Shown one piece after another: positions 42,939 to 52,011 of a stretch of DNA of 64,000 nt (its first letter is position 1; each line of letters starts with the position of its first letter). The notes under the pieces are model-generated. The model did not search any database, was not told the origin of the DNA, and saw only the letters and a program-made list of their open reading frames with translations. The position numbers were made by a program, and so were the translations under genes. The stretch is from Thermoleophilia bacterium (GTDB lineage: Bacteria > Actinomycetota > Thermoleophilia > Gaiellales > JAICJC01). The stretch lies in assembly GCA_025934255.1 (NCBI GenBank), contig JAICYJ010000001.1, positions 44,425-108,424 on the forward strand. Reading direction: 5' to 3'.

Positions 42939-43604
42939 TTGATGGCCCTCACCGATCCGGCACCCGACCGTCGTGAGCTGATCCTCGACGCCGCCGTCGT
43001 GGTCATCAGCCAGCGCGGCGTCGACCGGGCGCGGCTTGCCGATGTGGCCGAGGAGGCCGGAGTCAGCCTGGGGCTGGTGCAGCACTACTTCCGTACCCGC
43101 GAGCGCCTGCTCGTCGAGACGTTTCGTCGTGAGCAGGAGCGGATCTCGGCCATCTGGTCGTCCGCGGTGCCACCCAATGCGGATCCGCTGCTGCGGCTTG
43201 CCGAGTACATCCGCCTTGCGTCTCCCGAGGGCGGCCCCGAGGCGGCGACGCCATTCGACCCGGGTTGGTCGTTCTGGCTCGAGTTCTGGTCAAAGGCAAA
43301 CCGCGACGAGGAGATCCGTTCGGAGTTCACCGACATCTACAACGACTTTGCGGGACTCTTCCGGGACGCGATCGTGGACGGAGTCGAGCGCGGCGAGTTC
43401 CGGACGGCGTCAGCGCCCGACGAGATCGCCGACCGGCTGATCTCGCTGATCGACGGGACCGCGATCCGCACGCTCCTCGGAGGTTTTGAGCGCGAACGGA
43501 TGCTGCGCCTGCTGGCCGCTTCCCTCGAGCTCGAGCTGGGCCTCGATGATGCGCATGCGCGACGCCTTCGTGACTACCTCTCGGCCGGCGGACGAAGCCA
43601 TTGA
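42939..43604 (+). CDS. TetR family transcriptional regulator
   Basis: RRELILDAAVVVISQRGVDRARLADVAEEAGVSLGLVQHYFRTRERLL is a TetR_N helix-turn-helix. Confidence 0.9.
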   Translation: MMALTDPAPDRRELILDAAVVVISQRGVDRARLADVAEEAGVSLGLVQHYFRTRERLLVETFRREQERISAIWSSAVPPNADPLLRLAEYIRLASPEGGPEAATPFDPGWSFWLEFWSKANRDEEIRSEFTDIYNDFAGLFRDAIVDGVERGEFRTASAPDEIADRLISLIDGTAIRTLLGGFERERMLRLLAASLELELGLDDAHARRLRDYLSAGGRSH

Positions 43605-43697
43605 GTGAGCATGATCCAACCTCATCGCAACATTCTCAGCTAGTTCGAAGGTAGCTGTGGTCTCGTACCAGGGGTCAACGAGACTGAAGGAGAACCA

Positions 43698-44750
43698 GTG
43701 GAGCTCGATCTACCAGCGCGGCAGCCGGGCAGGGAGCCGGCCCGCCGAATCCGTGCCCGAACCGTTCTGGCAGTGCTCATCGCTGTCGTCGTCATATCGG
43801 CGATCGTCGCCGGCCTGACTCGCGCAAGGACGCAGTCGACGGCGGTCGGCAGCGGCGTCGTCGTCATCGAGACGAACCTCGGCTACCAGGGTGGGCAGGC
43901 TGCCGGCACCGGGATGGTGCTGACGTCGTCGGGTGAGATCCTGACGAACAACCACGTCATCCGCGGCGCGACCGACATCAAGGTCGTGGTGCCGAAGACG
44001 GGCCAGAGCTATTCGGCACAGGTGGTCGGCTACGACGTCTCGCATGACGTCGCGCTGCTGCGGGCGAGCGGCGCCTCGAATCTGAAGACCATCTCCCAGG
44101 GCGATTCCGGGTCCGTCAACCCTGGCCAGTCGGTGCAGGCGCTCGGAAACGCCGGTGGCACCGGCAGGCTCAGCTTCGCCTCCGGCACCGTGACAAACGT
44201 CGATCGCGCGATCACCGTGGGGGACGAACAGGGCGGGAACCCTGAGCACCTGAGCGGGCTGATCGAGACGAACGCGGCCGTGCGGCCGGGAGACTCGGGT
44301 GGGCCGTTGCTGAACTCCTTCGGCCAGGTGATCGGGATGGATACCGCCGCGTCGGCAGGCAACGACGTCGCCCAGACGACCACCAACGACGGGTACGCGA
44401 TCCCGATCAACAACGCCATGTCGATCGTCAAGCAGATCGAGAGCGGCAACGGCTCGGGATCTGTCCACGTCGGTGGCACCGCGTTCCTCGGAGTGGAGTC
44501 GACCGCGAGCAGCTACTCGTCTGGCGCGGAGATCTCGGCGGTGGTTGCCGGTGGCGCCGCGGAAGCCGCGGGCCTCACCGCGGGCGACCTGATCCTCTCG
44601 GTCGGCGGTCACACGATCTCATCTCCCGACGACCTCAGCCAGGTCGTCCTGACCCAGAAGCCGGGAGCGTCCATCTCCGCCGTCTACCTGGATCAGGCCG
44701 GCGCAACCCAGACCACGAACCTCACGCTGACAAGCGGACCTCCGCGCTAG
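43698..44750 (+). CDS. Membrane-anchored trypsin-like serine protease with a C-terminal PDZ domain (HtrA/DegP family)
   Basis: TM anchor VLAVLIAVVVISAIVAGL. Catalytic triad regions TNNHVI, HDVALL and GDSGGPL. PDZ region: GAEISAVVAGGAAEAAGLTAGDLILSVGG. Confidence 0.88.
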   Translation: MELDLPARQPGREPARRIRARTVLAVLIAVVVISAIVAGLTRARTQSTAVGSGVVVIETNLGYQGGQAAGTGMVLTSSGEILTNNHVIRGATDIKVVVPKTGQSYSAQVVGYDVSHDVALLRASGASNLKTISQGDSGSVNPGQSVQALGNAGGTGRLSFASGTVTNVDRAITVGDEQGGNPEHLSGLIETNAAVRPGDSGGPLLNSFGQVIGMDTAASAGNDVAQTTTNDGYAIPINNAMSIVKQIESGNGSGSVHVGGTAFLGVESTASSYSSGAEISAVVAGGAAEAAGLTAGDLILSVGGHTISSPDDLSQVVLTQKPGASISAVYLDQAGATQTTNLTLTSGPPR

Positions 44751-44760
44751 GAGCTGCCGA

Positions 44761-44794
44761 CACGGCCCCGGATCAGAAGCGATCCGGAGCCGTG
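44761..44794. terminator. Bidirectional hairpin between the convergent protease and nrdJ genes
   Basis: CACGGCCCCGGATC-agaagc-GATCCGGAGCCGTG forms a 14-bp stem with one mismatch. Confidence 0.45.
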
Positions 44795-44807
44795 CCGGCG
44801 CCGCAGA

Positions 44808-47800
44808 TCAGCCGCAGCCGGAGTTGTCGCCGCAGTCGCGGCAGGTGTAGCAGGCGCCGGTGCGCACCTTGCGCCCGCCGCACTTGGCGCACTCGACCGC
44901 GTCCTCCCAGGCGTTGAACAGCGCCGCCTGACCCGCCGATGGCGAGTGGGCGACCTCGGCCGCCGGCTCGCCCGCCTCCTGGGCGTCGTAGCTGGCGGCG
45001 ATCCGATCCTTTACGGCCTGGCTCATGATGCCCAGATCGGCCTGCTGATCGGTGTCCAGGAAGCGCTTGCCCATCCACCGGAAGATGTAGTCGGGGATCG
45101 ACTTGGCGACGCGGATGTCGGGGTCGTTGGTGAGCCCGCTCGGCTCGAACCGCATGTGCGCGAACTTCGAGACGAACACCTCCAGCGGCACGCCGTACTG
45201 GATGCCCACCGACACCGCGATCATGAACGCGTTCATGAGGCCGGCCAGGGTGGTGCCCTCCTTGGCGATGTCGACGAACACGTCGCCCGGGTCGCCCTCG
45301 GGGAACAGCCCCACGTGGATGTAGCCCTCGTATTCGCCGACCTTGAACTTGCGGCCGATCTCCTGCCGCTCAATCGGCATCACCCGCCGCTGCGGCTTGG
45401 CCGCGATCAACTCCGGCGCGTCGCTCTTGGTCGACAGCGGCTGGGCCACCTTGCAGCCGTCGCGGTAGATCGCGATCGCCTTCACGCCCAGCTTCCATGC
45501 GTCGATGTAGAGGCCGGCCACGTCGTCCACCGTGACCTCGGTGGGCAGGTTCACCGTCTTCGAGATCGCGCCCGAGATGAACGGCTGCACCGAGGCCATC
45601 ATCTTGACGTGGCCCATGTGATGGATCGCGCGGTCGCCCACGGCCACGTCGAACACCTGCAGGTGCTCGCCCTTGAACCCGGGTGCGCCCACCACCGTGT
45701 TGTGCTCGTTCACGAAGGCCACGATCTGGTCGATCTCGTGCGGCGCGTAGCCGAGCTTGGAGAGGGCGGTCGGCACCGTCTGGTTGACGATCGTGATGTC
45801 GCCGCCGCCGACCAGCTTCTTCGACTTGACCAGCGAGAAGTCGGGCTCAACGCCGGTGGTGTCGCAGTCCATCATGAACGAGATGGTTCCGGTCGGCGCA
45901 AGCACGGTGGCCTGCGCGTTGCGGTAGCCGTTGGCCTCGCCCAGCGCCAGCGCCTCGTCCCACGCCTTGCGGGCGGCCAGCATCATCTCGTCGGGCACCA
46001 CGCCCGCGTCGATGTTCGCGACCGCGGCGCGGTGCTTGCGGATCACCCGCAGCATCGCGTCGGCGTTCTTGTCGTACTCCTCGAACGGGCCGATGCGTCC
46101 CGCCATGTCGGCTGACTTGCGGTAGGCGCGGCCGGTCATGATGGCCGTGATCGCGCCGGCGTAGGCGCGGCCCTCGTCGGAGTCGTAGGGCAGCCCGCGT
46201 GCCATCAGCAGCGCACCCAGGTTGGCGTAGCCGAGGCCCAGCTGTCGCATCGCGTTGGCGTTGCGGGTGATCTCCTCGGTCGGGTAGCTCGAGTTCGAGA
46301 CCAGGATCTCCTGGGCCATGAAGATGATGTCCACCGCCCGCTCGAACCGCTCGACCTGGAACTCCAGCGTCTCGGGGTCGCGGAACTTCATCAGGTTGAG
46401 GCTGGCCAGGTTGCAGGCCGAGTTGTCGACGTGCAGGTACTCGGAACAGTTGGCGACGACGATGCCATCCACGATGTAGGAATGGTTGGTTGGCTCGGTC
46501 AGGTTGTAGACCGTCTCCTGGCCGTCCTCCTCACGCGAGACCAGCGCCGCCCCGGCCTTCGTCGCGTAGCGGGTGGTCGCTTGTAGCAGCTGCTCGAGCT
46601 TGGCTTGCTTGTTGACGGACGCGAAGCCGATCCGGGCGGCGAACTGCTCGATGTCGGTGCCGCTGATGCGGAGGTCGAACGCGGCGCTGCTTGCGTAGGT
46701 TCGGGTATCGCCGTCGGCGCGGGTGTACGTGAACGAGCCGCGATTCTCAGAGCCATTGGCGTAGATCCGGGCGCGGATGCCGAAGCCGAGCAACAGGCGC
46801 TGGACGTCCTTCAACAACGTTTCGCTGGCCGAGCCCAGGCCAACGTAGCGAGACGCGTTGCCCTCGCAGCGGGCGACGCATCCGTCCGCCGAGAACAGTC
46901 CGGCCAGGAAGCTTCCCTGTACTTCGGACGGCGCCTGGAAGACGCTACGCGGCACACGCTTTAGAGCTGACAGGTCGCGCGATGCGCCCAGGTCTCGCAG
47001 CAGCCGGCGCACTTCCTTGCGCCCGATGCGCAACTGTACGGTGCCGTTGCCCATGTGGACACTACTCACCGAGCCGAACTCTTGCTCGAGCAGCCGCTGG
47101 TGTTCGTCGATGGTCCCGTCCTCGATCTCGCTGCCGCCGTACACCCAGACGGCCTGCGTATCGGTGAGGCAGCCGTCGCCGGTGAGAACGCCCAGCATCG
47201 TGCCAAGGCCCGCGCTCCATCGCTCCGGCAGACCATCCACGGCCGTCGCCGCACCTGCGGCGACGGGCACCGGAACCGGCAGCTCCCATGACGCGTCGAA
47301 CGCCGGCGTCGGTGCGTCGCAGACCAGCACGTGATCGCTCTCCACCAAGTCCTTGGCCTCGACGTAGCCGCGGGTTGTCGTCCACAGGCGGTGGTTCTCG
47401 GTGCAGCGCAGCTCCTGGCCGTTCGCGAACCGGAGTCGCACGATCGGCTTGACACCATTACACATGATCGCCAGCGGCGTGGTTGCGCGCACGCCCACTG
47501 CGGGCTGCGCGGCCGTGGCGTCGTGGGTGTAGACCTGGAACTCCTCGCCCGCCTGGGCGCGGTCGTACAACTCTTCGATCTGCACGAGACCGATCGACGT
47601 GTGAACGCGGGCGTCACCCGGGAAGCACGGGTTACTTGCGTTGATGCGGCCGCTGGCGGGGCACGTGTGCCAGTCGTTCATGGTGGTGTCGTAATGCATG
47701 CCGGGATCGGCGCACTTCCAGGCCGCCTCCGAGATCTGGTGCATCAGGTCGCGGGCGCGCACTGTGCCCACGACGGAGCCGTCGGTGCGTGCCGTCAGGT

Positions 47801-49847
47801 TCCACTCCTCGTCCTCCAGCACGGCCCGCATGAACTCGTCGGTCACGCGCACCGAGTTGTTGGCGTTCTGGTATTGGATCGAGGCCCAGTCGGGCGAGTC
47901 CAGGCTCATGTCGTAGCCGGCCGCCTGCAGCACGCGCGCCTTCTCCTCCTCGTGCTGCTTGCACCAGATGAACTCCTCGATGTCCGGGTGGTCGACGTTC
48001 AGCACCACCATCTTGGCCGCGCGGCGGGTCTTGCCACCCGACTTGATGGTGCCGGCGGACGCGTCGGCGCCGCGCATGAACGAGACCGGCCCGGAGGCGT
48101 AGCCGCCCTTGGACAGCTGCTCCTTCGATGAGCGCAGCTTGGACAGGTTGATGCCCGAGCCGGAGCCGCCCCGGAACACCCGTCCCTCCTTGGTGATCCA
48201 GTCCAGGATCGAGTCCATGGAGTCGTCCACCGACAGGATGAAGCAGTTGTGGACGGCCACGTTGTTGGAGAGGTATTCGCCTGACTCGGTTTGAATGTCA
48301 TACACCTCTTCGGTGCCGATCTGTTCGATCGACACGATCTCTTCCTCGCGGAGATCCCCGCAGTTCTTGAGGCCACGCAACGAAAGCGACTCGATCAGCT
48401 TGGCCTGCTTCTCGCGACCGACGAACCCCACTTGCTGAGCGAAGCGGGCCCGCTCCGAGCCGATGGCCACAGAGACGACTGCCAGGTCGTGCCGGTCTTC
48501 GCGCGGATCGCTCTTGCGAATACGGCGAGAGTAGATACCCAGCATGCCAAGCAGCAGCTGCACCCCCTCCGCCCACCGCTCTCCGATCACCGCGAACTCG
48601 ACGCGGGCGTTCTCATAGCCAGCGTCGCGCCGCAGCGAGACATAGCCGTCGGCCTGGAAGATGCTCTGCAGGTAGGCGGCAACCTCGTCGGTCGATGCTG
48701 ACCAGAGCCGCTCGGGGACCGAGATGTCGGTCCCGCGCGCCATCAGTCCCCAGTCCTCGACGAATGGGCGCAGAGCCTCGCCATAGAGCCGGATCCGCCG
48801 GCACGTCAGGTCGGTGCGCTGCGTCTCGACGTCCGTGACACGGCGATGCACGTCCGGGAACACAACATCAAGGTGGTCGGTGATCCAGGCGTGCTCGTCA
48901 TCGTTCGCTGTGATGAACTCGATCGTCAGCGAGCGGTTGGTGCCGTTGTACTGCCCGACGAATCCGTCGGCCTGCAGCCAGCCGGCAAGGGCTGCCTCGG
49001 CCACCAGTCGCGCGTTGGTCTCGGTCGGGTCGTCACGAAGGTCGCCGGGACCTGCCGTCGCGAGAGCGCGCTCGGCGACTCGCGCCTTGTGCGGGTGAAG
49101 GTGCAGCCGCATGCCCGGCACGAGTTGATCGACGCGCAGCCAAGCCGGAGCGGTCCGTCGTTCCGCGACAGCTTTCACCACATGGTCGGGCGTTGCCTCG
49201 ATGTAGGAGCCATTGCGGAGGTTGACGCGCCACACCGGCTTTGTGCCGTTCGCCTGCACGGCGACGATGCGCGTCGCACCATTCGCGTCATAGACCTCGC
49301 GTCCGACCTGCTCATCCTCGACCAGCTGGCCGATCGGCACCATGCCGTCCGGCGTGGACACCAATGCGCGGTACGGCTGGCAGGCCGAGCACTGCGGGTT
49401 CTCCTCGAAGCCGACGTTGAACCAGACGGGCGAGTTGAACGCCACCATCTGGTGCAGCAGCAGGTGCGTCAGCTCCGCGTGGAAGGTGTCGGCCTCGGCC
49501 TGGTCGACGAAGTAGCCGTCCTTGACGCCCCAGGTCGTGATGGTGTCGGTGACGCGGCCGATCATCTGGCGCACGGAGTGCTCGCGCTGGGGGGTGTTCA
49601 GCTTCCCGCGGAAGTACTTCTGGGCGACGATGTTGGTGGCGGTCTGCGACCAGAACGAGGGGAACTCCACGTCCTTCTGCTCGAACGAGGGGCCGTCCTT
49701 GCCGGGGATCAGCGCCGTGCGCTGCTCCCAGTCGACGGTCTCGAAGGGGTCGTCGCCATCGCCCGTGAAGTACCGGTCCACGCCGATGGAAACGTCTTCC
49801 CTGCCCTCCAGGACGCGGGTTTCAGCCGGGTTCTCAGTCGTCGCCAT
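44808..49847 (-). CDS. nrdJ: Class II (adenosylcobalamin-dependent) ribonucleotide reductase precursor carrying two inteins
   Basis: 1679-aa precursor. The exteins (155 + 206 + 546 aa) contain AQKYFRG, SPVWFNVG, SA|CFIL, ASNP|CSEYLHVDNSACNLASLN, TVLAPTGTISF, ISKTVN and a C-terminal CxxC...CxxC tail. Confidence 0.95.
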   Translation of the reverse strand: MATTENPAETRVLEGREDVSIGVDRYFTGDGDDPFETVDWEQRTALIPGKDGPSFEQKDVEFPSFWSQTATNIVAQKYFRGKLNTPQREHSVRQMIGRVTDTITTWGVKDGYFVDQAEADTFHAELTHLLLHQMVAFNSPVWFNVGFEENPQCSACQPYRALVSTPDGMVPIGQLVEDEQVGREVYDANGATRIVAVQANGTKPVWRVNLRNGSYIEATPDHVVKAVAERRTAPAWLRVDQLVPGMRLHLHPHKARVAERALATAGPGDLRDDPTETNARLVAEAALAGWLQADGFVGQYNGTNRSLTIEFITANDDEHAWITDHLDVVFPDVHRRVTDVETQRTDLTCRRIRLYGEALRPFVEDWGLMARGTDISVPERLWSASTDEVAAYLQSIFQADGYVSLRRDAGYENARVEFAVIGERWAEGVQLLLGMLGIYSRRIRKSDPREDRHDLAVVSVAIGSERARFAQQVGFVGREKQAKLIESLSLRGLKNCGDLREEEIVSIEQIGTEEVYDIQTESGEYLSNNVAVHNCFILSVDDSMDSILDWITKEGRVFRGGSGSGINLSKLRSSKEQLSKGGYASGPVSFMRGADASAGTIKSGGKTRRAAKMVVLNVDHPDIEEFIWCKQHEEEKARVLQAAGYDMSLDSPDWASIQYQNANNSVRVTDEFMRAVLEDEEWNLTARTDGSVVGTVRARDLMHQISEAAWKCADPGMHYDTTMNDWHTCPASGRINASNPCFPGDARVHTSIGLVQIEELYDRAQAGEEFQVYTHDATAAQPAVGVRATTPLAIMCNGVKPIVRLRFANGQELRCTENHRLWTTTRGYVEAKDLVESDHVLVCDAPTPAFDASWELPVPVPVAAGAATAVDGLPERWSAGLGTMLGVLTGDGCLTDTQAVWVYGGSEIEDGTIDEHQRLLEQEFGSVSSVHMGNGTVQLRIGRKEVRRLLRDLGASRDLSALKRVPRSVFQAPSEVQGSFLAGLFSADGCVARCEGNASRYVGLGSASETLLKDVQRLLLGFGIRARIYANGSENRGSFTYTRADGDTRTYASSAAFDLRISGTDIEQFAARIGFASVNKQAKLEQLLQATTRYATKAGAALVSREEDGQETVYNLTEPTNHSYIVDGIVVANCSEYLHVDNSACNLASLNLMKFRDPETLEFQVERFERAVDIIFMAQEILVSNSSYPTEEITRNANAMRQLGLGYANLGALLMARGLPYDSDEGRAYAGAITAIMTGRAYRKSADMAGRIGPFEEYDKNADAMLRVIRKHRAAVANIDAGVVPDEMMLAARKAWDEALALGEANGYRNAQATVLAPTGTISFMMDCDTTGVEPDFSLVKSKKLVGGGDITIVNQTVPTALSKLGYAPHEIDQIVAFVNEHNTVVGAPGFKGEHLQVFDVAVGDRAIHHMGHVKMMASVQPFISGAISKTVNLPTEVTVDDVAGLYIDAWKLGVKAIAIYRDGCKVAQPLSTKSDAPELIAAKPQRRVMPIERQEIGRKFKVGEYEGYIHVGLFPEGDPGDVFVDIAKEGTTLAGLMNAFMIAVSVGIQYGVPLEVFVSKFAHMRFEPSGLTNDPDIRVAKSIPDYIFRWMGKRFLDTDQQADLGIMSQAVKDRIAASYDAQEAGEPAAEVAHSPSAGQAALFNAWEDAVECAKCGGRKVRTGACYTCRDCGDNSGCG
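46449..47627 (-). mobile_element. Intein 2 of NrdJ (393 aa) with a LAGLIDADG homing-endonuclease domain
   Basis: The N-terminal boundary reads ASNP|CFPGDARV (Cys1) and the C-terminal boundary reads DGIVVAN|CSEY (Ala-Asn followed by +1 Cys). Block B is CTENH. The LAGLIDADG motifs are MLGVLTGDGCL and FLAGLFSADGCV. Confidence 0.85.
48246..49382 (-). mobile_element. Intein 1 of NrdJ (379 aa) with a LAGLIDADG homing-endonuclease domain
   Basis: The N-terminal boundary reads QCSA|CQPYRALV (Cys1) and the C-terminal boundary reads NNVAVHN|CFIL (His-Asn followed by +1 Cys). Block B is TPDH. The LAGLIDADG motifs are LAGWLQADGFVG and YLQSIFQADGYVS. I verified the boundaries codon by codon on the DNA. 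Confidence 0.85.
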
Positions 49848-49900
49848 TCGTCTCTCCTCTGTCCGTCGTCCTCATCCGTATTCTAGCCGATTTGGGATCC

Positions 49901-50368
49901 CTACCGAACACCTGTTCGCCTCAGATCCTCCATCCGGGCCAGCTCCTGCTCGAACTCCTCAACATCCTGAAAATCGCGGTAGACCGAGGCAAATCGCACG
50001 TACGCGACGGGGTCGAGCCCGCGCAGCGCGGCCAGCGCCTGCTCGCCGATCGCCTGCGACGGCACCTCCTCGCGGATGCCGTTTCGCAGCCGCGCCTCGA
50101 CGGTCGCGGCGGCGTCCTCGATCTGCTCCAGCGACAGCGGGCGCTTGGTGCACGCGCGCACCAGGCCGGCCATCAGCTTGCCGCGATCGAACGGCTGCCG
50201 CGAGCCGTCGCGCTTGACCACGAACAGCGGCGATTCCTCGGTGCGCTCGAAGGTCGTGAACCGCTGCGCGCACAGCAAGCACTCGCGCCGGCGCCGGATC
50301 GTGCCCTTGCCGGCGACCCGCGAGTCGACCACCTTCGTCTCACCGTGCTCACAATATGGACAGTTCAC
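49901..50368 (-). CDS. nrdR: Transcriptional repressor NrdR (zinc ribbon plus ATP-cone)
   Basis: The GTG at 50368 gives VNCPYCEH...RRRRECLLCAQRFTTFE (CxxC...CxxC), then an ATP-cone (VVKRDGSRQPFDRGKL...YVRFASVY). The track start at 50440 adds 24 non-homologous residues. Confidence 0.9.
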   Translation of the reverse strand: MNCPYCEHGETKVVDSRVAGKGTIRRRRECLLCAQRFTTFERTEESPLFVVKRDGSRQPFDRGKLMAGLVRACTKRPLSLEQIEDAAATVEARLRNGIREEVPSQAIGEQALAALRGLDPVAYVRFASVYRDFQDVEEFEQELARMEDLRRTGVR

Positions 50369-50372
50369 GAGA

Positions 50373-50421
50373 TCCCCAGATGTAGTGGCCGCCGACCGGA
50401 TCAACCCACCAGATGTTGTGG
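50373..50421 (-). promoter_or_regulatory. Two tandem NrdR-box-like sites upstream of nrdR-nrdJ
   Basis: In minus sense the sites are CCACAACATCTGGTGG (50421-50406) and CCACTACATCTGGGGA (50388-50373), 33 nt apart start to start. Each matches about 11 of 16 positions of the remembered consensus acaCwAtATaTwGtgt. Confidence 0.45.
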
Positions 50422-50467
50422 CGGGACGGGTATTGTGCATAACGGCTCGGACGGACTCGGATCCCGC

Positions 50468-51097
50468 TCAACCAGGCGCAATCGGGGCGGCCGCCAGCAG
50501 CTCGCTGACCGTCACCGAGCGGTACCCGCGGGCGCCCATCTCGGGCAGCGCGATGCGCAGCGCCTCCACCGTCGGCGTGCGGTCGGCCTCGGTCGAGGTG
50601 TGCCGCGGCCAGCAGTCGTGCAGGTCGACGATCGCGCCCGGCGCGAGCCCGTCCAGGATCACCGTGGCGATCGCCTGGGGATCGCGCTCCAGCCAGTCGG
50701 ACGGGTCGACCGACCACAGCACCGTGGTCGGCAGCATCCGCGCCTCGGCGATGCGGCTGCAGCGCAGCGCGTCCTCGCCGTAGGGCGGGCGGAACAGCAC
50801 CGGCGCGTGGCCCAGCAGCCGCTGGCAGCGGGCGATGTCGTGTGCCAGCTCGTCGTCGGTGGCGTCCATCGCGTGCGGGTGGCTGAACGTGTGGTTGCCG
50901 ATCTCGTGGCCTTCGGCGATGGTGCGGCCGAGGATCTCCTCGCGGCCCTCGACCGACTCGCCCAGCACGAAGAAGGTGCCGTGCCCGCCGTGCTGCCGGA
51001 ACAGGTCGAGGATGTCGGGCGTCTGCGGCCCCGGCCCGTCGTCGAACGTGAGCGCAACCAGGCCGGCGGCGGCCGGGCCCTGCGAGACCACGCTCAC
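50468..51097 (-). CDS. Polysaccharide deacetylase (NodB homology domain, CE4)
   Basis: The GTG at 51097 forms a GTGA overlap with the upstream stop. Contains LTFDDGPG, IGNHTFSHP and LFRPPYG. Confidence 0.85.
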   Translation of the reverse strand: MSVVSQGPAAAGLVALTFDDGPGPQTPDILDLFRQHGGHGTFFVLGESVEGREEILGRTIAEGHEIGNHTFSHPHAMDATDDELAHDIARCQRLLGHAPVLFRPPYGEDALRCSRIAEARMLPTTVLWSVDPSDWLERDPQAIATVILDGLAPGAIVDLHDCWPRHTSTEADRTPTVEALRIALPEMGARGYRSVTVSELLAAAPIAPG

Positions 51098-52011
51098 GGG
51101 TGCAGGGCGCGCAGCGTCTCGGCCAGCCCCTCCCCGAGCGGCATCGCCGGCTGCCAGCCCAGCTCGCGCCGCGCCAGCGCGATGTCGAGGCAGCTGCGGT
51201 CGAGCTCTCCCAGCCGCGCCGGCCGGTGTTCGGGTGTGACGTCCGTGCCTGCCACCCGCTGCGACTCGGCCAGCAGGTCGATCACGTCGGTCTCGGTCTG
51301 GGTGCCGATGTTGAAGGCCCGGTGCGGCCCCTCGTAGGCCAGCGCCGCCATGTTGGCCGCCACCACGTCGCTCACGTAGACGTAGTCGCGGGTCTGGCGG
51401 CCGTCGCCGAAGATCACCGGGGTCGCGCCCGACGTCAGCTTGCCGAAGAAGATCGCGACCACGCCTGCCTCGCCGTGGGGATCCTGGCGCGGCCCGTACA
51501 CGTTGCTGTAGCGCAGCACCACGTGACGCGTGCCGTAGAGCCGGTTGAACAGGCCCAGGTAGAGCTCGGCGCCGTGCTTGGACGTGCCGTACGGCGACAT
51601 CGGCGCCGGCTCGACCGCCTCCGGCGAGGGGATCGTCTCGGCCTCCCCGTAGAGCGCGCCGCCGGTCGACGAGAACACCACTCGCGCGCCGGTGCTGCGG
51701 GCGCACTCCAGCACGGCGATCGTGCCGCGCACGTTCACGTCGGCGTCGAAGCCGGGGTTCTCGACGGACGCGCGCACGTCGGCCTGCGCGGCCAGGTGGA
51801 ACACCGCCGCCGGCTGCACGTCGTCGAACACCGCCTGCATGGCGTCGTGGTCGCGGATGTCCAGCTCGTGGAACTCGGCCCCGGCCGGCACCCTGTCCCT
51901 ACGTCCCCCGACCAGGTTGTCGATCACGGCAACGCGACCGCCGCGCTCGAGCAGCGCGTCGGCGACGTGCGAGCCGATGAAGCCCGCGCCCCCGGTGACG
52001 ACCGCGTCCAT
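51094..52011 (-). CDS. NAD-dependent sugar-nucleotide epimerase (GalE-like extended SDR)
   Basis: The ATG at 52011 gives MDAVVTGGAGFIGSHV. Contains YGTSKHGAE (YxxxK) and SNVYGPRQ. The track ORF to 52263 is a junk extension that overlaps the topA stop region. Confidence 0.9.
   Translation of the reverse strand: MDAVVTGGAGFIGSHVADALLERGGRVAVIDNLVGGRRDRVPAGAEFHELDIRDHDAMQAVFDDVQPAAVFHLAAQADVRASVENPGFDADVNVRGTIAVLECARSTGARVVFSSTGGALYGEAETIPSPEAVEPAPMSPYGTSKHGAELYLGLFNRLYGTRHVVLRYSNVYGPRQDPHGEAGVVAIFFGKLTSGATPVIFGDGRQTRDYVYVSDVVAANMAALAYEGPHRAFNIGTQTETDVIDLLAESQRVAGTDVTPEHRPARLGELDRSCLDIALARRELGWQPAMPLGEGLAETLRALHP

Follow-up and report, generated by a model that had tools for sequence, protein, structure and literature searches.

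The nrdJ precursor and its host enzyme

The reverse strand of a 64,000-nucleotide stretch of DNA from a Thermoleophilia bacterium (contig JAICYJ010000001.1; this 64-kb stretch is referred to as the window) carries an open reading frame (ORF) of 1679 codons plus stop (44808..49847), which we read as the precursor of a class II ribonucleotide reductase (RNR), NrdJ, interrupted by two predicted inteins. Its ATG at 49847 is preceded by a GGAGAG Shine-Dalgarno sequence, and a sequence look-up of the exact precursor protein returned no identical entry. Three extein segments make up the host enzyme, all on the reverse strand. The N-extein (residues 1–155; 49383..49847) comprises the class II-specific N-terminal domain and ends in NPQCSA; the middle extein (residues 535–740; 47628..48245) runs from CFILS to INASNP; and the C-extein (residues 1134–1679; 44811..46448) begins with CSEYLHVDNSACNLAS and supplies the remaining part of the barrel, the TSCPD domain and the C-terminal tail. 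Intein 1 (residues 156–534, 379 residues; 48246..49382, reverse strand) lies directly before the predicted redox-active cysteine, C156 in extein numbering, and intein 2 (residues 741–1133, 393 residues; 46449..47627, reverse strand) directly before the predicted thiyl-radical cysteine, C362.

Removing both inteins in silico yields a NrdJ of 907 residues. The spliced protein aligns to the intein-less NrdJ structure 7b9q (E=8e-180) and to the Thermotoga maritima enzyme (1xje; E=1e-55), and both alignments are unbroken over both junctions. In the T. maritima alignment, extein residues C156, C362 and C373 fall opposite C134, C322 and C333, with NPCSE facing NPCGE. We take T. maritima C134 to be the redox-pair cysteine (C225 in Escherichia coli), C322 the thiyl-radical cysteine (C439) and C333 the second redox cysteine (C462). 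Alignment to human R1 gave the matching motifs SCFLLS, NLCTE and CNLAS. The initial annotation of this ORF had proposed the same division into a 907-residue enzyme and inteins of 379 and 393 residues, with the redox and thiyl-radical cysteines in the +1 positions; we found its boundaries exact to the base, its assignment of both cysteines borne out by the alignment, and the extein homology on which it depended contiguous to both reference structures.

Family profiles give the same picture of the enzyme. The spliced protein scored 1354.7 bits against NCBIfam NF005122 (cut-off 859) and 593.1 bits against TIGR02504, NrdJ_Z (cut-off 399.95), and in Pfam it matched PF08471 (Ribonuc_red_2_N, the class II-specific N-terminal domain; E=4e-19), PF02867 (Ribonuc_red_lgC, the ten-stranded barrel domain; E=1.6e-136) and the TSCPD domain. 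From its sequence, the host protein is predicted to be a class II adenosylcobalamin-dependent ribonucleotide reductase, with all predicted catalytic residues present. The last 27 residues, CAKCGGRKVRTGACYTCRDCGDNSGCG (44811..44891, reverse strand), form a cysteine-rich tail resembling the reductant-shuttle tail, of zinc-finger type, found in many NrdJ proteins; a cysteine-rich zinc-finger tail that shuttles reducing equivalents has been reported for an actinobacterial NrdJ and for many class II RNRs (PMC5704485).

Anatomy and predicted fold of the two inteins

With slashes marking the splice points, the junctions read NPQCSA/CQPY...AVHN/CFILS for intein 1 and INASNP/CFPG...VVAN/CSEYL for intein 2. 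Both inserts contain the following residues of class 1 inteins: a nucleophile at position 1 (cysteine in each), a block B TxxH motif (TPDH at 49182-49193 in intein 1 and TENH at 47391-47402 in intein 2, both on the reverse strand), a C-terminal asparagine (N379 and N393, respectively) and a Cys, Ser or Thr at +1 (again cysteine in each). A penultimate histidine in block G, which is common but not obligatory, occurs in intein 1, whereas intein 2 terminates in Ala-Asn. Splicing without the penultimate histidine has precedent, according to the statement in PMC8772380 that cites its reference 23, and because of that precedent the missing residue does not exclude intein 2 from class 1.

Nested within each splicing domain are the two motifs of a LAGLIDADG homing endonuclease, as first annotated, and an aspartate is kept in all four. 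On the reverse strand, intein 1 carries LAGWLQADG (48963..48989), which is invariant in a 43-sequence alignment, and LQSIFQADG (48645..48671); intein 2 carries MLGVLTGDG (47172..47198) and LAGLFSADG (46881..46907). By Pfam, both inserts matched Intein_splicing and LAGLIDADG_3 (PF14528; E=1.3e-11 and 8.1e-21) above threshold, and both also matched NCBIfam intein_Nterm.

Since sequence searches of the inteins against the PDB returned only marginal matches (E about 1e-3), we predicted their structures with AlphaFold from homologue alignments (A1 and A2) and compared the models with known structures using Foldseek. The models had mean pLDDT (predicted local distance difference test) values of 88.9 for intein 1 and 90.4 for intein 2. 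The best matches of both were endonuclease-bearing inteins, led by the TliVMA intein (E about 1e-19 to 1e-20) and followed by PI-PfuI (1dq3), PI-TkoII and PI-SceI, with E values of 1e-12 to 1e-17 for PI-PfuI and PI-SceI. The monomeric two-motif endonuclease I-DmoI matched the central domain, I-DmoI and I-Tsp061I giving TM-scores of 0.63-0.74 when normalised to the target, and the Mtu RecA and Ssp DnaB mini-inteins matched the splicing domain. Sequence and models together predict that both inserts are canonical class 1 inteins of the HINT fold with nested two-motif LAGLIDADG endonucleases. We considered whether one could be a duplicate of the other and rejected this: their mutual identity is only ~25%, and they are therefore independent elements.

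Homologues number roughly 8000, the great majority of them from metagenome bins of Gaiellales, Gaiellaceae and Thermoleophilia. To gauge conservation, alleles were extracted from the 120 best homologues (clusters at 90% identity). In 41 of these 120 clusters both inteins occupy the same two sites. For intein 1, all 116 alleles retain Cys1, the His-Asn terminus and the CFIL context at +1; for intein 2, the same is true of Cys1, the Ala-Asn terminus and the CSEY context in 45 of 45. Across alleles, conservation of the block B TxxH and of the four LAGLIDADG motifs is complete or reaches at least 90%, and the second catalytic aspartate is nearly invariant. Public records give the relatives differing names, some 'LAGLIDADG family homing endonuclease' and others 'ribonucleotide reductase'.

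Natural alleles, selection and base composition

Among homologues sharing 95-100% extein identity with the window, three of the four possible presence/absence states were found: both inteins (P0001), intein 2 only (P0003, P0004 and P0005) and intein 1 only (P0007, P0008 and P0052). The fourth state, with neither intein, appeared among the matches listed only at 82-83% identity (L009 and L085); L009, from an uncultured Actinomycetes metagenome-assembled genome (MAG), is at 82% the closest species representative among those matches. At the DNA level, one relative (L001) lacks exactly the 1137 nt of intein 1 and another (L002) exactly the 1179 nt of intein 2, each gap being in frame and at the predicted junction, with the remaining extein DNA 95.5-99% identical to the window. 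These gaps are a natural confirmation of the intein boundaries. Such precise presence and absence among near-identical alleles may be taken as a sign of recent gain or loss.

The same alleles bear on whether the inteins might serve the cell as redox-gated switches, in which a disulfide between Cys1 and the +1 cysteine, or another disulfide of the intein, would stall splicing under oxidation and couple the supply of deoxyribonucleoside triphosphates (dNTPs) to redox state. Both inteins have the required pair of cysteines, the +1 residues are the redox and radical cysteines of the enzyme itself, and further cysteines are conserved among the alleles (C75 and C250 invariant in intein 2, C341 nearly invariant in intein 1). 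The inteins are also kept in a large share of the nrdJ genes of the lineage, and redox-sensitive splicing has been documented elsewhere, for example in mycobacterial DnaB, according to the account given in PMC6195587. However, the sequence data give no need to invoke regulation, close relatives manage without one of the inteins and the 82–83% identical relatives among the matches listed without either, and the placement at catalytic residues is predicted equally well if the inteins are selfish elements. We regard such a switch as quite improbable.

The initial annotation had described the intein DNA as visibly more A/T-rich than its surroundings. Measured over all positions this does not hold: total GC is 0.654 and 0.669 in the inteins against 0.660-0.675 in the exteins. 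Only GC content at third codon positions (GC3) is lower, at 0.815 and 0.855 against 0.95-0.96, and this is offset by a higher GC elsewhere in the codon (first position in intein 1, first and second in intein 2). The GC3 of the other genes in the window spans 0.817-0.981 with a median of 0.92; against this host range the inteins rank low and the exteins fall where highly expressed genes typically do. The intein composition does not mark the DNA as recently acquired from a foreign source.

Upstream of nrdJ by 53 nt lies nrdR (49901..50368, reverse strand), encoding a 155-residue protein that matches TIGR00244 over its full length at 186 bits. Directly upstream of its start are two NrdR-box-like palindromes, 33 bp apart (50374-50387 and 50407-50420), which are the only such matches in the 64-kb window. 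The longest nrdR ORF, from an ATG at 50440, overruns both palindromes; the true start is probably the GTG at 50368. nrdR and nrdJ form a probable operon. The order epimerase, polysaccharide deacetylase, nrdR, nrdJ is kept in close relatives whose contigs reach far enough upstream, and the genes downstream of nrdJ vary among them. An Rfam scan of 43000-52000 found no RNA family, so no B12 riboswitch was detected there, and the window contains no second RNR and no further intein.

Selection was assessed from the ratio of nonsynonymous to synonymous substitution rates (dN/dS). The inteins gave values of 0.09-0.14, and the endonuclease sub-domains considered separately gave 0.08-0.3, with most pairs at 0.08-0.15, as low as for the splicing domains; these low ratios indicate purifying selection on the inteins, their endonucleases included. 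For the exteins dN/dS was 0.04-0.11, apart from 0.40 for the pair with L002. The nrdJ of that relative (protein P0008) ends in GDASMSW in place of GDNSGCG, and its protein matches the window only up to extein residue 841; the divergence looks like a frameshift or assembly error and inflates the extein ratio of this pair.

These values also bear on whether nrdJ could be a dead gene, its insertions no longer splicing and its ORF surviving because stop codons are rare in DNA of 67% GC. Long spurious ORFs are indeed plentiful in this GC-rich region, on both strands. A decayed gene is nonetheless hard to reconcile with the low extein dN/dS, with an extein GC3 of 0.96, with catalytic residues that are all intact in enzyme and inteins alike, and with a conserved nrdR-nrdJ organisation that includes the NrdR boxes, and we consider it extremely improbable.

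Whether the inteins are still mobile, as the initial annotation had suggested they may be, is addressed less directly. Among the closest alleles, intein identity tracks extein identity (92-97% and 96-100%, respectively). In comparisons of the same genome pairs (the window against L163, L164 and L165), synonymous divergence (dS) was 2-3 times higher in the inteins than in the exteins, for example 0.49 against 0.16, which fits either separate histories for the inteins or stronger codon bias in the exteins, where GC3 is 0.96. The flank of L002 directly 3′ of site 2, where intein 2 is absent, contains 10 synonymous differences in 46 nt, where ~0.8 would be expected (Poisson P about 9e-9) in a sequence that is otherwise 98-99% identical to the window. 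This mosaic tract corresponds to window positions of about 46400-46445; its changes are mostly to T-ending codons unusual for nrdJ, and 6 of the 10 are common to L164, which has intein 2. The tract could be a co-conversion tract, the footprint of a precise intein loss, or target-site variation of the kind that confers resistance to the endonuclease. The tract would fit a homing cycle without proving one.

A possible qualification, then, is that the inteins splice but are immobile relics, their endonucleases inactive and the present pattern left by ancient gain followed by occasional precise deletion or allelic recombination. The scaling of intein with extein divergence in the closest alleles would suit this, as would an intein GC3 within the range of host genes, with no sign of very recent foreign origin, and a second catalytic aspartate that is only nearly invariant. 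Against it stand the endonuclease dN/dS, the intact aspartates of all four LAGLIDADG motifs, the three presence/absence states at an extein identity of at least 95%, and the mosaic tract beside site 2. The raised intein dS also fits separate histories, though extein codon bias would explain it too. We therefore attach this to our preferred reading as a qualifier, one we think plausible but doubtful. The suggestion of continued mobility is backed indirectly by the precise polymorphism at 95-99% identity and by the low endonuclease dN/dS.

Related inteins and the origin of the arrangement

Inteins at the catalytic cysteines of RNRs are familiar. The thiyl-radical cysteine is where insertion occurs most often in class I and II enzymes (PMC2677866), and among bacterial intein hosts RNR ranks second by frequency, with 211 inteins, those of Actinobacteria among them (PMC4760082). 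Among species representatives and metagenome contigs, we found both sites occupied across phyla, two archaeal bins included. Site 156 also holds inteins in MAGs labelled Bacteroidota, Pseudonocardiaceae, Propionibacteriales and Bathyarchaeia, and site 362 in those labelled Chloroflexi, Chloroflexia, Fimbriimonadales, Rhodothermales, Planctomycetota, Polarisedimenticolia, Dermatophilaceae and Nanoarchaeota. Allelic inteins at the two sites are from 28% to 69% identical. In one MAG labelled Bacteroidota (L006, an 8.5-kb contig) both sites are filled, with intein 1 63% identical and the best extein segment ~50%; this is either an intein transfer across phyla or a mis-binned contig.

Intein 2 shares its site with the contiguous thiyl-cysteine inteins listed in InBase as 'RIR1' alleles (Dassa et al. 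2009, PMC2677866), and is 43-59% identical to the site 362 inteins of Chloroflexi, Fimbriimonadales and Dermatophilaceae MAGs. It differs from the 'RIR1' alleles as a new sequence variant with an Ala-Asn instead of a His-Asn C-terminus. The archaeal Pyrococcus-type NrdJ (NCBIfam NF006207/PRK08332, a profile of 1684 residues) is likewise a class II RNR with LAGLIDADG inteins. The profile includes an intein, which intein 2 matches at profile positions 937-1240 (E=8.6e-31), and the C-extein match starts at 1240. The window protein, from a bacterial host, nevertheless falls far under the NF006207 cut-off (106 against 2400 bits). PI-PfuI, among the top structural matches of both intein models, is only about 15% identical to them in sequence; PI-PfuI and PI-PfuII, from the RNR gene of P. 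furiosus, are reportedly active homing endonucleases, a finding attributed to Komori and colleagues in 1999. A bacterial class II RNR with multiple inteins also has a counterpart in Trichodesmium erythraeum, whose nrdJ contains four inteins alongside three group II introns as summarised in PMC2874743 from Liu, Yang and Meng (2003), whereas the window gene is interrupted by two inteins and free of introns.

The metagenomic split intein NrdJ-1, in wide use for protein trans-splicing, shares its host enzyme and active-site loop with intein 2. It is split and lies one residue further on, at NPC/SE with serine at +1 (PMC2677866), whereas intein 2 is contiguous, has cysteine at +1 and contains an endonuclease. 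Six relatives (P0055, P0056, P0058, P0063, P0065 and P0075) combine intein 1 with a mini-intein of ~162 residues, lacking an endonuclease, one residue downstream of site 2. Its junction, read in P0055, P0056, P0058 and P0075, is NPC/C...VVVHN/SEY with serine at +1, the same insertion point as that of NrdJ-1. Other relatives carry three or four inteins (P0011, of 2567 residues, P0040, P0045, P0050, P0051, P0064, P0109, P0117, L008 and L030). The additional sites in multi-intein relatives lie near extein residues 223-235 (GGK/TRRAAKM), at 549/550 (APTG/TISFMMDC) and at about 660; the further sites of P0011 are GGK/T and APTG/T.

Two inteins at the catalytic cysteines of nrdJ are thus a common and well-documented arrangement and not a novel one, given their frequency in the literature, their presence in 41 of the 120 best clusters and their recurrence across phyla and in archaea. 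The initial annotation had thought the pair worth recording; the precision of its boundaries was justified, but the arrangement is much more ordinary than it implied.

The explanation we favour, at a probability of roughly 88%, is that two canonical LAGLIDADG inteins were acquired independently at hot-spot catalytic-cysteine sites, are removed by class 1 splicing and are maintained as selfish elements. An ordinary nrdJ of an uncultured Gaiellales- or Thermoleophilia-like actinobacterium would have been invaded by two unrelated inteins. Each would excise itself after translation, by an N-S acyl shift at Cys1 and trans-thioesterification to the +1 cysteine, followed by cyclisation of the C-terminal asparagine and an S-N shift, to leave an active NrdJ of 907 residues. 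At both sites the enzyme's own catalytic cysteine would serve as the +1 nucleophile. Insertion at those codons that are most strongly conserved in an essential gene would offer the endonuclease an invariant target and make imprecise loss lethal, and the inteins would spread or persist by homing into intein-less alleles. From the positions of the inserts in the catalytic barrel, the precursor is expected to be inactive until both splicing steps are done. The further claim of a dNTP supply dependent on splicing presupposes that the cell has no RNR besides NrdJ, which a 64-kb window cannot show.

Several points weigh against this explanation. The comparison sequences all come from metagenome assemblies, and splicing and endonuclease activity are predicted here from sequence. 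Besides its missing penultimate histidine, intein 2 has an asparagine where block F often has aspartate, and the two might slow C-terminal cleavage; tempering the former, the penultimate alanine is invariant in all 45 alleles. Because the identities of intein and extein go together in close relatives, much of the inheritance appears vertical, and current homing is not proven. A stronger interpretation would make the two inteins redox-conditional maturation switches that gate B12-dependent dNTP supply or, in a more modest variant, the visible part of a homing cycle still running in a soil lineage. The variant draws on the alleles with and without inteins at 95-99% identity, on synonymous tracts that resemble co-conversion or resistance, and on the mini-inteins at the neighbouring site. 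We judge this interpretation to be unlikely.

For annotation, the correct product of this gene would be a 907-residue NrdJ generated by two splicing events, unlike what the record names of its relatives convey. As a pair of Cys1/Cys+1 inteins, one of them without a penultimate histidine, the two are possible parts for protein engineering, and near-identical alleles that carry or lack a given intein offer potential natural donor and target pairs for tests of homing and resistance. The value added is modest and leaves current understanding unchanged: it lies in the presence/absence polymorphism and in the mosaic flank at the thiyl-cysteine site. By a known rule, intein insertion targets catalytic residues in enzymes linked to replication, and this locus is one more example.

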